From Candidatus Heimdallarchaeota archaeon (GTDB taxonomy: Archaea; Asgardarchaeota; Heimdallarchaeia; Heimdallarchaeales; Kariarchaeaceae): DNA of 34,640 bases. A model generated the notes under the pieces. The model saw nothing but the letters and a program-made list of their open reading frames with translations, was not told where the DNA came from and searched no databases. Numbering within the stretch: position 1 is the stretch's first letter; each line of letters begins with the position of its first letter. The stretch is taken from assembly GCA_015523565.1 (NCBI GenBank), contig WAKA01000061.1, forward strand, positions 1 to 34,640, read 5' to 3'. This document shows positions 10,453 through 18,476 of this stretch, piece by piece. The translations under genes and the position numbers were made by a program.

Positions 10453-11457
10453 ATTACAGCACGTAATAAGAATGCACCCCATAGAAGTAGTTTAGGATAT
10501 AGAAGATCTCGAGCAAGCAGTCACAAACCAAAAGTTCGGGGTTGGCCAGATTATGAAGGAGATCCCAAAATTTTGGCATTTCCAGGATTTAAGGCAGGAA
10601 TGACCAGAATTATTTACAAGGAGGACTCTCCAAAATCTCATGTTGCCAACATCGATAGAATTGCGGCAGTGACTGTAATTGAAACACCTCCAGTCATCCT
10701 TATGGGAATGAGAACCTATAAACAAACACCATATGGGTTGAAGATTTTGGCAGAAGCAAAATTACAAAGCCCATCCAAGCACATTAGACGCATTAAGGTC
10801 AAATTCCCAGATGAGGAGAAGTATAAAGAACAACTGGAGAATGTTGAGAAAACAGCAGACCAAGCCGTGCAGTTGAGAGCGATTGTTCACACCCAACCAG
10901 ATTTGACTGGAATTGGAACAAAGAAGCCCAGCATCTTTGAAATAAGAGTTGGTGCCAAATCAGTTTCTGAAGGAATTAATTGGCTTAAGGAAAAGATGGG
11001 AAAAGAGCTTCAAATTGAGGACTTTACAAAACCAGGACAATATGTCGATGTGATAGGCATTACAAAAGGTAAAGGCTTCCAAGGACCAGTTAAAAGGCAT
11101 GGCATTACCCTGTTACAACACAAATCCAAGCACACAAAAAGAGGAGTTGGATCAATTGCACCATGGACACCAGCAAGAGTCCAATGGGTATTACCTAGAT
11201 ATGGGCAATTAGGGTATTTCAGGAGAACAGAATACAACAAGAGAGTCATGATGGTAGGAACCAATCCAGATGAGATCAATCCGAAAGGGGATTTTGTCAA
11301 ATATGGAAAGGTCAAGAACAGATACGTTGTGTTGAAAGGTTCTGTACCAGGACCGAAAAAACGCATGGTCATGTTAAGAGATGGTATGAGAAATCAAAAC
11401 AAACTTATCAAGGAGCCACGGATCACATACGTATCCCTTGAATCACAAATGAGGTAA
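10453..11457 (+). CDS. rpl3: 50S ribosomal protein uL3, probable ATT start
   Basis: GFKAGMT, TKGKGFQGPVKR, KGSVPGP. The conserved N-terminus (NAPHRSSLGYRRSRA...VRGWP) is in frame upstream of the ORF-track TTG; only ATT 10453 is a plausible start after in-frame stop 10444-46. Confidence 0.93.
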   Translation: MTARNKNAPHRSSLGYRRSRASSHKPKVRGWPDYEGDPKILAFPGFKAGMTRIIYKEDSPKSHVANIDRIAAVTVIETPPVILMGMRTYKQTPYGLKILAEAKLQSPSKHIRRIKVKFPDEEKYKEQLENVEKTADQAVQLRAIVHTQPDLTGIGTKKPSIFEIRVGAKSVSEGINWLKEKMGKELQIEDFTKPGQYVDVIGITKGKGFQGPVKRHGITLLQHKSKHTKRGVGSIAPWTPARVQWVLPRYGQLGYFRRTEYNKRVMMVGTNPDEINPKGDFVKYGKVKNRYVVLKGSVPGPKKRMVMLRDGMRNQNKLIKEPRITYVSLESQMR

Positions 11458-11471
11458 GTTGGAGGTGAAAA

Positions 11472-12248
11472 ATGATGATTAGCGTATTAAATGTAAAGGG
11501 AAACAAAACCAAAAGAAAAATAGAGTTGCCACCTGTGTTCAATACAGATTACCGCCCTGATGTGATCCGACGTGCAGTACTTAGTGAACAAAGTAAGCAA
11601 AAACAACCACAGGGACGTTATCCACTTGCCGGAAGAATTGTTGCGGCATCATCCTTGGGTCCAGGAAGAGGAGCATCCAAGATTCCACGAACACATGGAA
11701 GTGGAACACCTTCTGCTGGAAGAGGGGCATTTGTTCACAGTGCGGTTGGAGGAAAAATGCTCTTTCCACCCACTCCCGAAAAAAAGATTGTAGAAAAGAT
11801 CAATAAAAAAGAGCATAAGCTTGCTTTAAAATCTGCAATTGCGGCAACAAAAGAAAGGAACTTTGTTGAGCAGAGAGGTCATAGAGTCAGTGAAAAAGTC
11901 CAATTCCCCATCATCATAGAGGATAAATTTACAGATGTTCAAAAAACAGCAGAAGTAAAAACTGTCCTTGAAAACCTTGGATTGGGAATGGATCTTGAAA
12001 GATGCAATGTCCGTAAAATCAGGGCAGGAAAAGGAAAAAGAAGAGGGCGAAAATACCGGAAAAAGGTAGGGCCCCTTATTGTCGTTGTTGAAGACTGTCC
12101 ACTTTTGAAGGCAGCAAAGAATATCCCTGGTGTGGAAGTAGTTGAACTTCGACATATGAAGGTTGAAAACTTGGCACCAGGAGGAGATCCAGCAAGGCTG
12201 ACCGTTTGGACAGAAAAGGCCATTGCCCAATTGAAGGATATGGAGTGA
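11472..12248 (+). CDS. rpl4: 50S ribosomal protein uL4
   Basis: RPDVIRRAV, GPGRGASKIPR, RAGKGKRRGR, LAPGGDPARLTVWT; SD GGAGGTGA. Confidence 0.96.
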   Translation: MMISVLNVKGNKTKRKIELPPVFNTDYRPDVIRRAVLSEQSKQKQPQGRYPLAGRIVAASSLGPGRGASKIPRTHGSGTPSAGRGAFVHSAVGGKMLFPPTPEKKIVEKINKKEHKLALKSAIAATKERNFVEQRGHRVSEKVQFPIIIEDKFTDVQKTAEVKTVLENLGLGMDLERCNVRKIRAGKGKRRGRKYRKKVGPLIVVVEDCPLLKAAKNIPGVEVVELRHMKVENLAPGGDPARLTVWTEKAIAQLKDME

Positions 12249-12253
12249 TAGAA

Positions 12254-12514
12254 ATGGAAAACCATGAAATAATAATCAGACCCGTCTTCTCTGAATCAAT
12301 TTTCGACTTGATTTACAAGGAGAACAAGATACTCTTTGAAGTCAACAAGAATGCAAATAAATTCCAGATAAAACGGGCGGTACAAGAATTATACAATGTC
12401 AAGGTTGTAAAGGTGAACACAATGATTACACCACGGGGAACCAAAAAAGCCATAGTTAAATTGGCTAAGGAATACCCTGCTGATGACTTGGCATCTGAGC
12501 TAAATCTATTCTAA
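12254..12514 (+). CDS. rpl23: 50S ribosomal protein uL23
   Basis: IIRPVFSE, ANKFQIKRAV, KVNTMITPRGTKKAIVKL. Confidence 0.95.
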   Translation: MENHEIIIRPVFSESIFDLIYKENKILFEVNKNANKFQIKRAVQELYNVKVVKVNTMITPRGTKKAIVKLAKEYPADDLASELNLF

Positions 12515-12526
12515 TGAGGTGAAAAA

Positions 12527-13270
12527 ATGGGTAAAAAAATTCTTGTTCAAAGGCGTGGCCGTGGTGGACCTGTTTTCAGGGCAGCAGGGCACAAACGAAT
12601 TGAACCAATCAAGTACAGGAAATTCTCTAGGGAAGAATTGTCATCAAAATTCACAGCTAGAGTTGTTTCTCTTCACCATGAACCAGGAAGAGGTGCACCC
12701 CTTGCAAAAATCCTTTTTTATGATGGTCAGTATAAATATGTCCTTCCTGCTGAAGGGCTTGCAGTTGGGGACACCATTGAATATGGAGCAACAGCAGAAA
12801 TTGCCCCAGGAAATGTTCTTCCTTTGAAATTCATGCCAGTCAGAACCCCAATTTTCAACATAGAACTGCGTGCAGGCGATGGAGGAAAATTGGTGAGGTC
12901 TGCTGGAGCAACCGCCACAGTTGATTCAATTACAGATAAATGGGTTTATGTCAAACTCCCCTCAGGGCGCATTAAAAAGTTCCCACCAGAGGCAAGAGCC
13001 ACAGTAGGCGTAGTTGCAGGGGGCGGCATCACTAAGAAACCCTTGATGAAGGCAGGCAATAAATACCATAAACTGAGGGCAAAGGGTCATAAATACCCAA
13101 GAGTAAGAGGCACTGCAATGAACCCAGTGAAACACCCACATGGTGGTGGTGCACACCAGTCCCCACCAAGATCAACCACCGTTTCACGTAATGCCCCACC
13201 AGGCAGAAAAGTGGGTCTTATTGCGGCCAGACGTACAGGTATTAAACGTGGTCGTCAAGCAAAGATGTAA
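12527..13270 (+). CDS. rpl2: 50S ribosomal protein uL2
   Basis: MGKKILVQRRGRG, HEPGRGAP, PRVRGTAMNPVKHPHGGG, GLIAARRTG. Confidence 0.98.
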   Translation: MGKKILVQRRGRGGPVFRAAGHKRIEPIKYRKFSREELSSKFTARVVSLHHEPGRGAPLAKILFYDGQYKYVLPAEGLAVGDTIEYGATAEIAPGNVLPLKFMPVRTPIFNIELRAGDGGKLVRSAGATATVDSITDKWVYVKLPSGRIKKFPPEARATVGVVAGGGITKKPLMKAGNKYHKLRAKGHKYPRVRGTAMNPVKHPHGGGAHQSPPRSTTVSRNAPPGRKVGLIAARRTGIKRGRQAKM

Positions 13271-15029: not shown

Positions 15030-17930
15030 ATGGCCATTTCCGACCCGCATGCTTTAGCACTGCAAAATATTCTTACAGAATATGGGACAGACACTGAAAA
15101 AGGGCTTCTACTTAAAAAAGTTCGGGAATTGAGAGATAGATTCGGTAAGAACGAGGTGACAACTAAAACACCCAGCTTCTGGAAGATCTATTTAGCACCA
15201 CTGTTTGATATATTAATCACAATTTATCTGATCATGACAGGTATTTTGGTCATTTTGGCAATATGGTATCCACCCATTTTAGGACAAGTATTGTTTTGGC
15301 TATCCATAATAGCTTTTAACATGATTATCGCAGTGTTCCAGCAATACAGGGCTCAAAAAAAATTGGATGCATTAAAGGACTTGTCGCCACCAAAGGCAAC
15401 TGTAGTTCGTGAAGGAAATATTGCAGAAATAAGGGCAAGTCTGCTTGTACCAGGTGACCTAGTCAAACTTGATTTGGGAGACAGAATTCCCGCAGATATG
15501 AGAATCATTAAGTCATCATCACTGACAGTCAATGAGGCATCGTTGACAGGAGAAAGCAAGGCAGTCTCAAAAATGGAGGATGGATCAAAGCCTTTGCCAA
15601 AAGATACACCAATTGCAGAAAGGGCAAACATGCTTTATATGGGAACATTTGTTCAGACAGGAACAGCCACAGCAGTTGTCGTAAGTATAGGAAATGAAAC
15701 AGAACTTGGCAAGATCGCCAGTGAAATTTCAGAAATGCAGACTCTTGAAATCCCACTCAGAAGCAGGGTTAATGCAATTGCAAAGAAACTTGTTCTTGTC
15801 ATGCTCATTCTTTTTGTCGCATCTGTTTCTTTCAAAATCTATTTCAGAATCACCAATCAAATGGAGTTGACTCCAGAAGCAATAGCCCAAGATCTTGTTC
15901 AAAGTGTAATCACAGCCATGTCGGTAATGCCCATTAACATCCCCTTGCTGACAACCATTGTTCTTATCACGGGAGTTGTGAAAATGGCTTCAGAAAATGT
16001 GATAATAAAAGAACTCTCCGTGATTGAGACATTGGGAAGAACATCAGTCCTTTGTTCAGACAAGACGGGAACAATGACGACTTCAAAAATGACGGTTTCT
16101 AGGTTATGGGACACTGAAAATTACTACGCAGTAAAATTTGATGAAACAGGGGAAGTCTCCATTTTCATGATTGATGAAAGCATGAAAAGAGATGCCAGTG
16201 AACTTGAACAATTTGTTTTCAGCCAAATGAACCAAATCGGAAGGGACACGGCCATTGAACTTCTTTTAACTGCAACAACCCTAAATAACGATGCAACCTT
16301 AGTTATCGAGGACGTCTATGGGGAAAAAGGGTTAAGCCTTTGGGAAGCAGTAGGGAATGCCACTGACGCGGCCTTTTTGGTGCTTGCATATAGAACAACC
16401 CTTGATCAAAATTACATAAGACAAAGATATATCAAGATTAGGGAATATCCATTCAATTCCACTGTCAAAAGAATGACAAAGCTGTTCAAGGATACCGAAG
16501 AGGGAGACTACATGATTTTCTCAAAAGGCGCCGCAGAAGTCCTTTTACCACGTTGTACACATATTGGAAATGAGGGAGAGAATAAGGTCAGACCTTTTAA
16601 GGAAGGAGAAAAAGAGAAAATCCAGAAAGATATCGATAGCTTTGCAAATTTAGGGTATAGGGTTGTAGCAGTTGCATACCGTGCAATCACGTCATTTCCT
16701 GATTTTTCAGATGCAATTGAGGAAAGGGAGTGGATGGAAAACAATCTAACATTTATTGGATTTGCATGTCTTTTAGACCCTCCAAGACCAGGGGTGAAAG
16801 AAGCAGTAGCAAAGCTGGATCAGGCGGGCATATTTCCAATCATGATAACGGGGGATTCCCCAAAAACGGCATCAACAATTGCGGCACAGGTAGGAGTTTT
16901 GGATCCTGACGAAATTGTGATTGAAGGAAAAGACATCTTAAAACTATCAGATGAGGAATTTTTCAAAGTCTCTGTCTTTGCACGCGTTTCCCCCCAAGAC
17001 AAAAAACTTATTGTAGACAAATATCAAAAAAGGGGAGATGTTGTTGCCATGACAGGGGATGGAGTTAATGACTCCCTTGCCATAACAAGAGCGGATGCAG
17101 GAGTTGCAATGGGGATTACAGGAACAGAAGTGACCAAGGAAGCGGCAGATATTATCCTTGCAGATGATTCCTATGTCAGCCTTGTAAAAGGGGTAGAACA
17201 AGGAAGGGGATTGTTTGAAAAGATTCGAATGATAATTTTCTTTTTTATTGCCGTGAATATCGCAGAAGGTATCGTCTACTTTTCCACATCATTCATCCCA
17301 GGATTTGTCCTTCTTAACAATTTGCAACGTGCGTATATCTTTTCCATAATGCATGGCATTCCCCCTGTCGTGCTCATTTTTGATTCGATTGCAGAAGACA
17401 TTATGGAACTGAAGCCGAGACAGCATGACGCCATCATTAACAAACGCTTGTTTGGAGCAATGACTGTTTTTTTTGCCTCATTCTCTTTAGTTTTGCTTAC
17501 AGCATATTTTGGAAATTACTTCGGCATTATCCCTGTGACAGAGTATAATCTTTCAGGAATGGTGCCAAACCTAAACAGCTCTAAATTGAGCGCAATATCC
17601 TATGAACAGGCAAAGGCAAGAACCATGCTAATTACAGTGATATATCTTACAGAATCAATGTTTATCCTTTCAATCCGAAGAATTAACCAAAGCATAATCT
17701 ATAGCTTACGAAACAGTGACTTGTTTGTCATCTCTATGGTATTGTTTGGCCCATTGCTTCATGCAACCGTTATGTATACAAATTTTCAAAGGGCATTTCC
17801 AGCCATATCTGTAGAGATAATTCGTTTATCATTGACAGATTGGCTATTGGCACTGACACTTTCAGCAATACCCATCCTTATGCTTGAATTATATAAAACC
17901 ATAATGAGAAAAAGAAATAGACAATTCTGA
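15030..17930 (+). CDS. P-type ATPase, P2A-like scaffold with atypical transport site
   Basis: LTGES, DKTGTMT, KGAAE, DPPR, MITGD, GDGVND all present; about 10 TM segments. Confidence 0.95.
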   Translation: MAISDPHALALQNILTEYGTDTEKGLLLKKVRELRDRFGKNEVTTKTPSFWKIYLAPLFDILITIYLIMTGILVILAIWYPPILGQVLFWLSIIAFNMIIAVFQQYRAQKKLDALKDLSPPKATVVREGNIAEIRASLLVPGDLVKLDLGDRIPADMRIIKSSSLTVNEASLTGESKAVSKMEDGSKPLPKDTPIAERANMLYMGTFVQTGTATAVVVSIGNETELGKIASEISEMQTLEIPLRSRVNAIAKKLVLVMLILFVASVSFKIYFRITNQMELTPEAIAQDLVQSVITAMSVMPINIPLLTTIVLITGVVKMASENVIIKELSVIETLGRTSVLCSDKTGTMTTSKMTVSRLWDTENYYAVKFDETGEVSIFMIDESMKRDASELEQFVFSQMNQIGRDTAIELLLTATTLNNDATLVIEDVYGEKGLSLWEAVGNATDAAFLVLAYRTTLDQNYIRQRYIKIREYPFNSTVKRMTKLFKDTEEGDYMIFSKGAAEVLLPRCTHIGNEGENKVRPFKEGEKEKIQKDIDSFANLGYRVVAVAYRAITSFPDFSDAIEEREWMENNLTFIGFACLLDPPRPGVKEAVAKLDQAGIFPIMITGDSPKTASTIAAQVGVLDPDEIVIEGKDILKLSDEEFFKVSVFARVSPQDKKLIVDKYQKRGDVVAMTGDGVNDSLAITRADAGVAMGITGTEVTKEAADIILADDSYVSLVKGVEQGRGLFEKIRMIIFFFIAVNIAEGIVYFSTSFIPGFVLLNNLQRAYIFSIMHGIPPVVLIFDSIAEDIMELKPRQHDAIINKRLFGAMTVFFASFSLVLLTAYFGNYFGIIPVTEYNLSGMVPNLNSSKLSAISYEQAKARTMLITVIYLTESMFILSIRRINQSIIYSLRNSDLFVISMVLFGPLLHATVMYTNFQRAFPAISVEIIRLSLTDWLLALTLSAIPILMLELYKTIMRKRNRQF

Positions 17931-18011
17931 GATTTTAAATAAGCAAACAACAACAAGGATTTGTTGAAATCAGGATTGGAAAAATACCTTTTGAAAGAAC
18001 ATCCAAATTCA

Positions 18012-18476
18012 ATGAAGCCATTTAAAAAAGCAGTATTGGGAGGGACTTTTGATAGGCTACACAGTGCACATAAAAAACTTCTGGAAACAGCCGCATGCCT
18101 TGCACAGAATGTGTTCATTGGAATTGTTGGAGATGCACTTGGAAAAAAACTTTTTCCAAAAAAGAAACATAATGAGCTCATCCAACCCTTTAATGTTCGA
18201 AAAGAAAATGTGGAAAGTTTTATGAAAAAATTCAGGTGTAACGTTGAAATCGGTGAGCTTAAAGACCCATGGGGACCTGCACCTTATGATGAAAATGCAG
18301 ATCTGATTGTAGTGTCAGAGGAAACAAAACCTGCTGCAGAAAAGATCAACGAAATGAGAAAGGAAAATAATTTACCACCACTTCATATATATGTCATTGA
18401 ATGGATAATTGACAGGGATGGAAAGCCTATTTCGTCTACAAAGCTTCGGGAGAAAGAGGCTAAATCCTCCTCTTGA
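18012..18476 (+). CDS. coaD: Phosphopantetheine adenylyltransferase (archaeal/eukaryotic type)
   Basis: LGGTFDRLHSAH, DPWGP, IVVSEET, ISSTKLR. Confidence 0.9.
   Translation: MKPFKKAVLGGTFDRLHSAHKKLLETAACLAQNVFIGIVGDALGKKLFPKKKHNELIQPFNVRKENVESFMKKFRCNVEIGELKDPWGPAPYDENADLIVVSEETKPAAEKINEMRKENNLPPLHIYVIEWIIDRDGKPISSTKLREKEAKSSS

Follow-up and report, generated by a model that had tools for sequence, protein, structure and literature searches.

The pump and its membrane ion site

The DNA analysed here is a stretch of 34,640 nucleotides from Candidatus Heimdallarchaeota archaeon (contig WAKA01000061.1), referred to at its full length as the window, and the subject of this report is the P-type ATPase gene that it carries (protein P0001, hereafter the pump; Table 1). 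The protein contains the Pfam domains Cation_ATPase_N, E1-E2_ATPase, Cation_ATPase, Hydrolase and Cation_ATPase_C, which constitute the full P2/P3-type layout, and the generic P-type ATPase model TIGR01494 places it within the superfamily (257.3 bits against a cut-off of 62.3). Its closest PDB sequences, as found with HMMER, were LMCA1 (E 1.2e-115) and then SPCA1, SERCA and Na,K-ATPase. An AlphaFold2 model built with 120 homologues as input had a mean predicted local distance difference test score of 86.8 and a predicted template modelling score of 0.82, and displayed ten long predicted membrane helices (M1 to M10). Helix M4 is broken in this model at residues 300-302 and helix M6 at 775-779, just where the helices of P2 pumps unwind to form their ion sites. 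The top 50 Foldseek matches to the model were all P2 pumps (SERCA, SPCA, LMCA1, Na,K- and H,K-ATPases; TMq at most 0.75), and matches in the ESM Atlas comprised the pump's own archaeal cluster followed by bacterial CtpF-like P2 pumps.

A first-pass annotation of the window, made by a model from the letters and their translated reading frames, had described the catalytic motifs as all intact. TGES, DKTGT and TGDGVND are indeed present (Table 1), as are KGAAE (residues 499-503) and MITGD (residues 605-609). The same annotation had reported PINIP in place of a PEGLP-type M4, with coordinates that proved exact. Conservation in Table 1 and below refers, unless stated otherwise, to the 120 best homologues, which are 41-77% identical to the pump.

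Table 1. Features of the pump gene, of its surroundings in the window and of related genes in the same genome. Positions are those of the window unless another contig is named.
Feature	Position	Strand	Remarks
Ribosomal protein run (L3, L4, L2)	10573-13270	+	
Leucine-rich-repeat protein, 294 aa	13273-14157	-	Follows the ribosomal run on the other strand
Small open reading frame (ORF), 119 aa	14138-14497	-	No Pfam match
Small ORF, 99 aa	14653-14952	+	No Pfam match
P-type ATPase gene (P0001)	15030..17930	+	Uninterrupted ORF, 966 aa, P2-type architecture
TGES, residues 173-176	15546..15557	+	A domain; dephosphorylation motif of P2/P3 type
M4 AMSVMPINIP, residues 296-305	15915..15944	+	Both prolines of the P2-type PxxxP retained
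PINIP, residues 301-305	15930-15944	+	I302 at the SERCA E309 position, N303 at G310
DKTGT, residues 344-348	16059..16073	+	Phosphorylated Asp344; all five invariant in 120 homologues
TGDGVND, residues 675-681	17052..17072	+	P-domain hinge / Mg2+ site; G676, D677, G678, N680 and D681 invariant in 120 homologues
M5 N743-I-A-E746	17256..17267	+	Correspond to SERCA N768 and E771; site I ligands retained
M6 LQRAYIFSIMHGIP, residues 765-778	17322..17363	+	R767 (SERCA L792), F771 (N796), M774 (T799), H775 (D800)
M8 E875	17652..17654	+	Corresponds to SERCA1 E908; site I ligand retained
Cytidylyltransferase-like gene	17961-18476	+	Starts 31 nt past the pump stop codon
Second PINIP paralogue	Own genome, contig C25:7018-9945	-	999-aa open frame, 50.6% identity, M6 FQRTYIFTVAHAFPP
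Canonical P2A pump	Own genome, contig C126:17670-20417	+	PEGLP, SSNLAE, WINLVTDG; 31% identity to the window pump

The Ca2+ ligands of SERCA are E309, N768, E771, N796, T799, D800 and E908. In order to locate their counterparts, three alignments were used. HMMER aligned M4 of the pump (svmPINIPll) to vaaiPEALss of LMCA1 in a comparison with PDB sequences, and the M5-M6 segment, searched alone, aligned without gaps to SERCA1 residues 750-823 at an offset of +25, giving the register listed in Table 1. Alignment of the C-terminal segment set E875 on E908 of SERCA1 and E907 of SERCA2. Four of the seven ligands are thus replaced in the pump, E309 by I302, N796 by F771, T799 by M774 and D800 by H775, exactly the equivalences that the first-pass annotation had drawn by hand; N743, E746 and E875 are the three retained, in keeping with its statement that the M5 NxxE and the M8 Glu persist. 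As aligned, the site II residues of SERCA have given way to hydrophobics, those of site I persist, and the bridging Asp800 has become a conserved His. An Arg gained in M6, also pointed out in the first pass, is present as R767 at the L792 position, but it is a feature of one subclade and not of the family.

Conservation, phylogeny and genomic context

The rebuilt site is strongly conserved, well beyond what chance would give. P301, I304, P305 and E746 are invariant among the 120 homologues, position 774 is apolar in all of them, and I302 and N303 (116 each), N743 (117), Q766 (118), F771 (114) and H775 (119) vary in only a few. The first-pass annotation had suggested examining PINIP and the M6 His in homologues, and both are kept, as the figures for I302, H775 and position 774 attest; so is TGES (T in 117, G and E in 120, S in 119), which it had noted as retained. 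Other well-conserved aromatics lie in M1, M2, M5 and M6, with W90 invariant and Y54, Y66, Y750 and Y769 present in at least 90% of the homologues.

A broader clade set consisted of 31 family rows (29 representatives, the window protein and its paralogue). E746 occurs in all 31, H775 in 30, E875 in 29, N303 in 28 and N743 in 27. The E309 position is occupied by I, V, L, F or W, position 303 by one of the polar residues Asn, Ser and Thr in place of G310, the N796 position mostly by hydrophobic or aromatic residues, and the T799 position mostly by apolar ones, although a few branches have Thr, Ser or Gln there. In basal branches the residue at the E309 position is W or F (PWNFP, PFNFP); such bulky residues look like a plug in site II, to judge from the alignment. 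R767 is present in 104 of the 120 close homologues versus 6 of the 31 clade representatives. A role of Arg767 as a family-wide built-in counter-ion was accordingly dropped, the residue being subclade-specific.

E875 is found in 97 of the 120 homologues, a further four are gapped there, and the remaining 19 have Ile (18) or Leu (1). All 19 of these Glu875-less sequences possess His868, two turns off in M8, compared with 16 among the 97 in which Glu875 is present. On the alignment, the presence of His868 for Glu875 reads as a carboxylate-to-imidazole swap that would leave the number of ligands unchanged, and the Glu875-less sequences look like a single subclade with a shifted M8 ligand.

In a sample made up of the best locus from each of 30 Asgard-phylum genomes, the window's own genome included, M4 reads PINIP in 19 loci, PISIP in nine and PITIP in two, while the M6 His and TGES are present in all 30.

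A HMMER search of 1.84 billion representatives returned 80,602 P-type relatives at E<=0.001, and about 30 family clusters at 50% identity occur among the best 150 of these. The M4 motif was surveyed in the 125 full-length rows (840-1060 aa, DKTGT present) of the same best 150. Thirty have P-[IVLFW]-[NS, once M]-[ILF]-x, 93 have PE[GAST][LM] and two have PSGLP or PQGLP. Rows with the rebuilt M4 include the higher scorers and overlap with PE-type rows at about 417-446 bits. A profile search of genome contigs with the family alignment keyed on generic P-type motifs; 78 of its 80 loci were ordinary P2A pumps, mostly bacterial, and the only family members were loci L022 and L026.

Two trees were inferred from about 900 alignment columns, one of 69 rows under LG+G4 and one of 35 rows under LG+C20 with posterior mean site frequencies (PMSF). 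Both were rooted on the P1B pumps of the pump's own genome, and rows of the family were chosen by their M4 motif. The rebuilt-site family is monophyletic in both trees, with a Shimodaira-Hasegawa-like approximate likelihood ratio (SH-aLRT) support of 100, and joins the prokaryotic PEGLP-type P2A pumps with a support of 99 in both; Asgard P3A pumps, E. coli MgtA and the P1B pumps fall outside the group thus formed. The family is sister to prokaryotic P2A pumps or nested within them (support 80). Its most basal member shares 37-41% identity with bacterial PMR1-type pumps, about the same as with other family branches, which fits an origin of the family from PMR1-like P2A pumps. The suggestion of a possible new subclass in the first-pass annotation is borne out insofar as the altered proteins form one clade. 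Of the phylogenetic comparison that it proposed, the two trees cover the prokaryotic part and give the family a clade of its own that lies beside or inside the prokaryotic P2A pumps; for eukaryotic P2A-D, P4 and P5 sequences, model scores and PDB searches stand in.

The rebuilt-site clade is, as far as sequence can tell, large and mostly made up of Asgard archaea. Named organisms account for 31 of the 120 best homologues, of which 29 are Asgard (Heimdall-, Kari-, Hod-, Thor-, Odin- and Promethearchaeota) and two are labelled 'Methanobacteriota archaeon'; where sequences of basal branches have a name, it is that of Promethearchaeota or Helarchaeota. Among 151 Asgard-phylum genomes, 131 have a match at E<=1e-100, and about 95 have a family-level best match, often in two to five copies each, where family level is set by a score proxy (E<=5e-135). 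The pump's own genome, represented by an assembly that is 90% complete, has seven P-type ATPase genes. Besides the pump these are a second PINIP paralogue and a canonical P2A pump (Table 1), together with four of P1B type, including one with CPC and one with CPH.

One family member was encountered in a metagenome-assembled genome labelled Bathyarchaeota (locus L150, G151:C12:277766-280669, minus strand; 704 bits, 42% identity). It is of a derived type: M4 reads PVSIP, Ser replaces the Asn of M5, and the His of M6 is missing. The other 70 of the 71 genomes of that phylum had no family-level match, and gene transfer or a binning error is possible. In several Asgard lineages two family genes adjoin each other (loci L022, L026, L148 and L149), and two adjoining PINIP genes occur in L134. 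The subtypes of the tandem pairs are constant, one partner having PINIP in M4 and QW..L..T.H.FP in M6, the other PINLP and QHIY....VHS.P. This suggests an old duplication that was retained, for different specificities or for joint work. P3A-type genes were also observed above the NCBIfam cut-off (up to 1077 bits against 615.5) in 11 of 61 Asgard genomes searched, with full-length loci L126-L129 (genomes G041, G058, G034 and G054) that read IPVALP or IPAALP in M4; a review places prokaryotic P3A pumps mainly in methanogens.

The surroundings of the gene are heterogeneous. Pfam assigned the 16 neighbours in the window to ribosomal proteins, a leucine-rich-repeat protein, a cytidylyltransferase-like gene and others. 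The cytidylyltransferase-like gene downstream may be co-transcribed with the pump. The two small upstream ORFs recur at the same place in two other genomes of the genus (L130, L131) and were not found beside family members elsewhere. Rfam detected only two tRNAs in the window, and no riboswitch or other RNA upstream of the pump. A look for expression data turned up four DNA runs from a single study and none of RNA. All-against-all ORF clustering of 20 loci and the window yielded no neighbour family in more than four of the 21, and those loci are close kin. The Pfam families of 46 neighbours at 13 loci were likewise heterogeneous. In loci L132, L134, L140, L146 and L147 they include one ZIP zinc transporter (L132, 10904-11674), metallopeptidases of families M20, M24, M28 and M29 and an AstE/AspA-type enzyme. 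The ZIP and metallopeptidase counts are raw, with no background frequency, and the hosts are peptide-fermenting archaea.

Proposed transport mechanism and candidate substrates

Our best reading is that the pump is an active P-type ATPase that appears to descend from prokaryotic P2A (PMR1/SERCA-like) Ca2+ pumps and whose transport site appears to have been rebuilt. It would pass through an ordinary Post-Albers cycle, in which E1 would bind the substrate from the cytoplasm, Asp344 would then be phosphorylated, and E2P would release the substrate outside before TGES catalyses dephosphorylation. Instead of two binding pockets, the alignment suggests a single one lined by Glu746, His775, Glu875, Asn743 and Asn303, which would have an overall charge of about -2 and a smaller set of ligands than the Ca2+ sites. 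With site II filled in and site I rebuilt around two Glu and a His, a different small cation is probable, and we consider it likely that the pump carries a small cation of some kind other than Ca2+. The first-pass annotation had proposed an active pump with a non-Ca2+ substrate. This agrees with the intact conserved motifs, with the conserved manner in which four of the seven ligands are replaced and with the presence of a canonical pump in the same genome, and the substrate itself is what we infer.

Export of a divalent transition metal (Mn2+, Fe2+, Co2+, Ni2+ or Zn2+) from the cytoplasm is our tentative proposal for that cation. A mixture of carboxylate, imidazole and amide ligands is typical of membrane transition-metal sites such as those of CDF and ZIP proteins. 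A metal is favoured by this ligand mix in the predicted pocket, together with the occurrence of His868 in every Glu875-less sequence. The ZIP gene lies two genes off in one of the 13 loci scanned, which argues very weakly in the same direction. Several points weigh against a metal. The geometry of the pocket comes solely from alignment, and the exchange of Glu875 for His868 probably reflects one clade and one evolutionary event. A cytoplasmic metal-binding domain was not found among the 120 homologues (His-rich windows in 1, CxxC in 3). Four P1B-type metal pumps already exist in the genome, and the gene neighbourhood has no theme, four of 21 loci being the widest recurrence of any neighbour family. 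The Mn2+-carrying P2-type pumps (SPCA) use ordinary oxygen ligands. Lastly, the set of Glu and His, with the Arg767 that the pump possesses, also suits a proton relay.

This last point leads to a close rival, nearly as good as the metal proposal although somewhat doubtful in itself, in which the pump moves a monovalent cation, either electrogenically as H+ or as Na+ (or K+). Glu746, with Glu875, would be the protonatable or ion-binding carboxylate and His775 the relay, and Arg767 of the subclade could supply a built-in positive charge that aids release, on the model of the Asp/Arg pair in P3A pumps, where a role of the Arg has been described (PMC10654040). P3A H+ pumps likewise have a hydrophobic residue at the E309 position (PMC4937031), as the IPVALP and IPAALP motifs of the Asgard P3A pumps illustrate. 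Only two carboxylates are left in the site, cytoplasmic metal-binding motifs are as scarce as stated above, and Arg767 is common among close homologues. Nevertheless, its restriction to 6 of the 31 clade representatives puts Arg767 outside the core mechanism of the family. The proton-carrying M6 Asp of P3A pumps is a His here, five strictly kept polar ligands would be more than a proton site needs, and the P3A model TIGR01647 reaches 300.4 bits versus a cut-off of 615.5. Moreover, of the 11 Asgard genomes with bona fide P3A pumps, 10 also carry the family, so the two do not stand in for each other.

An improbable alternative to a non-Ca2+ cation pump is that Ca2+ (or Ca2+ and Mn2+) is still the substrate, a single ion being held by the site I residues N743, E746 and E875 with His substituting for Asp800. 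Three of the seven SERCA ligands are retained, Ca2+ pumps are the top matches in NCBIfam and the PDB, and sources annotate family members as Ca2+-transporting ATPases; a study of the Asgard transportome groups the pumps of these archaea with the putative Ca2+ ATPase TC 3.A.3.2.21 (PMC7997004). However, the scores fall well below the equivalog cut-offs of both the PMR1-type model TIGR01522 (450.4 vs 798.3) and the SERCA-type model TIGR01116 (410.1 vs 703.4), and E309, N796, T799 and D800 have all become conserved non-oxygen or non-ligating residues. The single-site Ca2+ pumps LMCA1, SPCA and PMCA use site II, which is the very site that is erased here. The canonical P2A pump of the same genome, furthermore, plausibly covers the Ca2+ job.

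The first-pass annotation had called M4 flippase-like and had raised the prospect of a state intermediate towards the eukaryotic P4 flippases. The corresponding alternative is a large or non-metal substrate, either a lipid (a proto-P4 flippase) or an organic cation, for instance a polyamine, with the hydrophobic M4 residue acting as a gate, and we find it barely credible. The host lineage is the archaeal sister of eukaryotes, PISIP is present in nine of the 30 sampled loci, and conserved aromatics are numerous in M1, M2, M5 and M6. P4 and P5 pumps are called unique to eukaryotes in PMC10654040, with no known prokaryotic relatives. According to PMC4937031, the Ile of the P4 motif PISL sits at the position of the Glu in PEGL, as I302 does here. 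The same source gives Ile or Val at this position for P3-ATPases, and a hydrophobic residue there is therefore not specific to P4; it is also all that the pump has in common with flippases.

No further link between the two emerged. The marks of P4 pumps are DGET in the A domain, PISL in M4 and a Lys in M5, K873 of ATP8A2 (PMC4937031). The pump has TGES instead of DGET, matches PISL in P and I only, keeps the second Pro and the TT of a P2-type M4, and has N743 at the position of the M5 Lys. Its two buried Glu and its His are typical of ion sites. The P4 model TIGR01652 scores 100.8 bits on the pump against a cut-off of 431.25, does not exceed the cut-off in any of the 151 Asgard-phylum genomes (best match 84 bits), and scores family members no higher than other P-type ATPases of the phylum. 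Pfam finds no PhoLip_ATPase domain in the pump. When the M4 segment alone was searched against the PDB, the seven matches were to SPCA1, SERCA1 and MgtA; the 22 matches to the M5-M6 segment alone included SERCA, PfATP4 and H,K-ATPases. All of these are P2 or P3B pumps; neither set contains a P4 or P5 chain, nor do the top 50 Foldseek matches. The trees put the clade with P2A, and no conserved partner gene was found at the 21 loci. The CDC50 model PF03381 had no match in the 90%-complete own genome or in any of 14 control genomes, in a search with no positive control. For P5, the model TIGR01657 gives 222.7 bits against 618.25, and MPINIP differs from the P5 motif PP(E/D/A/V)LP (PMC10654040). 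Taken together, TGES, the second M4 Pro, the Asn in M5, the TIGR01652 score and the PDB and Foldseek matches lend no support to a P4 flippase identity. The pump is probably not a lipid flippase, and the finding does not currently bear on flippase origin.

We hold it very improbable that the family is a new subfamily whose pocket handles something novel for P2 pumps, be it a new class of metal or else a lipid head group or organic cation. Being nearly confined to the archaeal sister group of eukaryotes, such a clade could also be the stock from which a eukaryote-only 'large-substrate' subfamily (P4 or P5) grew; the evidence here, with trees of prokaryotic rows, argues against a P4/P5 link. Finally, the loss of four canonical ligands, and neighbours that provide no functional context, might suggest an ATPase that binds nothing in the membrane and transports nothing, serving as a sensor or regulator or being a decayed pump. 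This hardly merits belief, given that the replaced positions are among the most conserved in the protein, that about 95 of the 151 genomes retain the family, often in two to five copies, and that the catalytic motifs are invariant and the frame is open.

Novelty and relation to known pump systems

The family is apparently undescribed. No description of the rebuilt-site clade was found in the literature searched, whose coverage excludes subscription journals, and the motif name PINIP had no protein-related use there. The available portions of three papers that mention both Asgard archaea and P-type ATPases (PMC7016017, PMC7997004 and PMC10456885) do not describe the family. Of these, the transportome study counts the P2 pumps of Asgard archaea among the orthologues of a putative Ca2+ ATPase (PMC7997004), and that of Aravind and colleagues gives SERCA a bacterial origin (PMC7016017). 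A 2023 review by Palmgren treats all prokaryotic P2A pumps as one family and leaves Asgard archaea unmentioned (PMC10654040).

A new subclass with a non-Ca2+ substrate is well supported by the sequence evidence, the nature of that substrate being a matter of inference. P-type ATPase subfamilies are defined by what the M4/M5/M6 site binds, and a conserved, differently built site makes the clade a candidate new specificity class. Since its members are labelled as Ca2+-transporting ATPases, conclusions on Asgard ion homeostasis drawn from such labels (e.g. on Ca2+ signalling) may be overstated. Identity of the substrate would add a subfamily to a well-studied superfamily and shed light on how the archaea closest to eukaryotes manage their ions.

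The P2A Ca2+-ATPases are the nearest of the known systems. The pump resembles Listeria LMCA1, SPCA1/PMR1 and SERCA1/2 in domain order, in its ten membrane helices and in TGES, DKTGT and TGDGVND, shares with them the M4 PxxxP with its helix break, the M5 NxxE and the M8 Glu, and has its best sequence and fold matches among them. In contrast to P2A pumps, the family has I, V, L, F or W for E309, N, S or T for G310, mostly hydrophobic or aromatic residues for N796, mostly apolar ones for T799 and His for D800; it lies below the PMR1-type and SERCA-type cut-offs and forms its own, mostly Asgard, clade.

With the P3A pumps (AHA2/Pma1) the pump has in common the hydrophobic E309 position, a TGES-type A domain and, in one subclade, a mechanism that may rely on a single site and a built-in Arg. 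It differs in having His for the M6 Asp, the clades are separate in both trees, and P3A pumps do not show the pattern of M5 NxxE and M8 Glu. The likeness to P4 pumps (ATP8A2, Drs2) consists of the Ile at the E309 position, along with orthologues that read PIS- as in PISL, whereas TGES, the second M4 Pro, Asn for the M5 Lys, the acidic and His residues of the site and the lack of PhoLip_ATPase domains set the pump apart. P1B heavy-metal ATPases are marked by CPx or SPC in M4, by six to eight membrane helices and often by metal-binding domains. The pump has no CPx or SPC in M4, has ten helices and Cation_ATPase_N and Cation_ATPase_C domains, and scores under the cut-offs of the P1B models.

The transition-metal sites of CDF, ZIP and P1B-4 proteins combine carboxylates with His, and in part Asn, inside the membrane. 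The resemblance of the predicted pocket to them is by analogy in that set of carboxylate and His (and Asn) residues. CDF and ZIP proteins have unrelated folds, and P1B-4 pumps belong to a different P-type subfamily; the pump has no CPx or SPC motif and no metal-binding domains.

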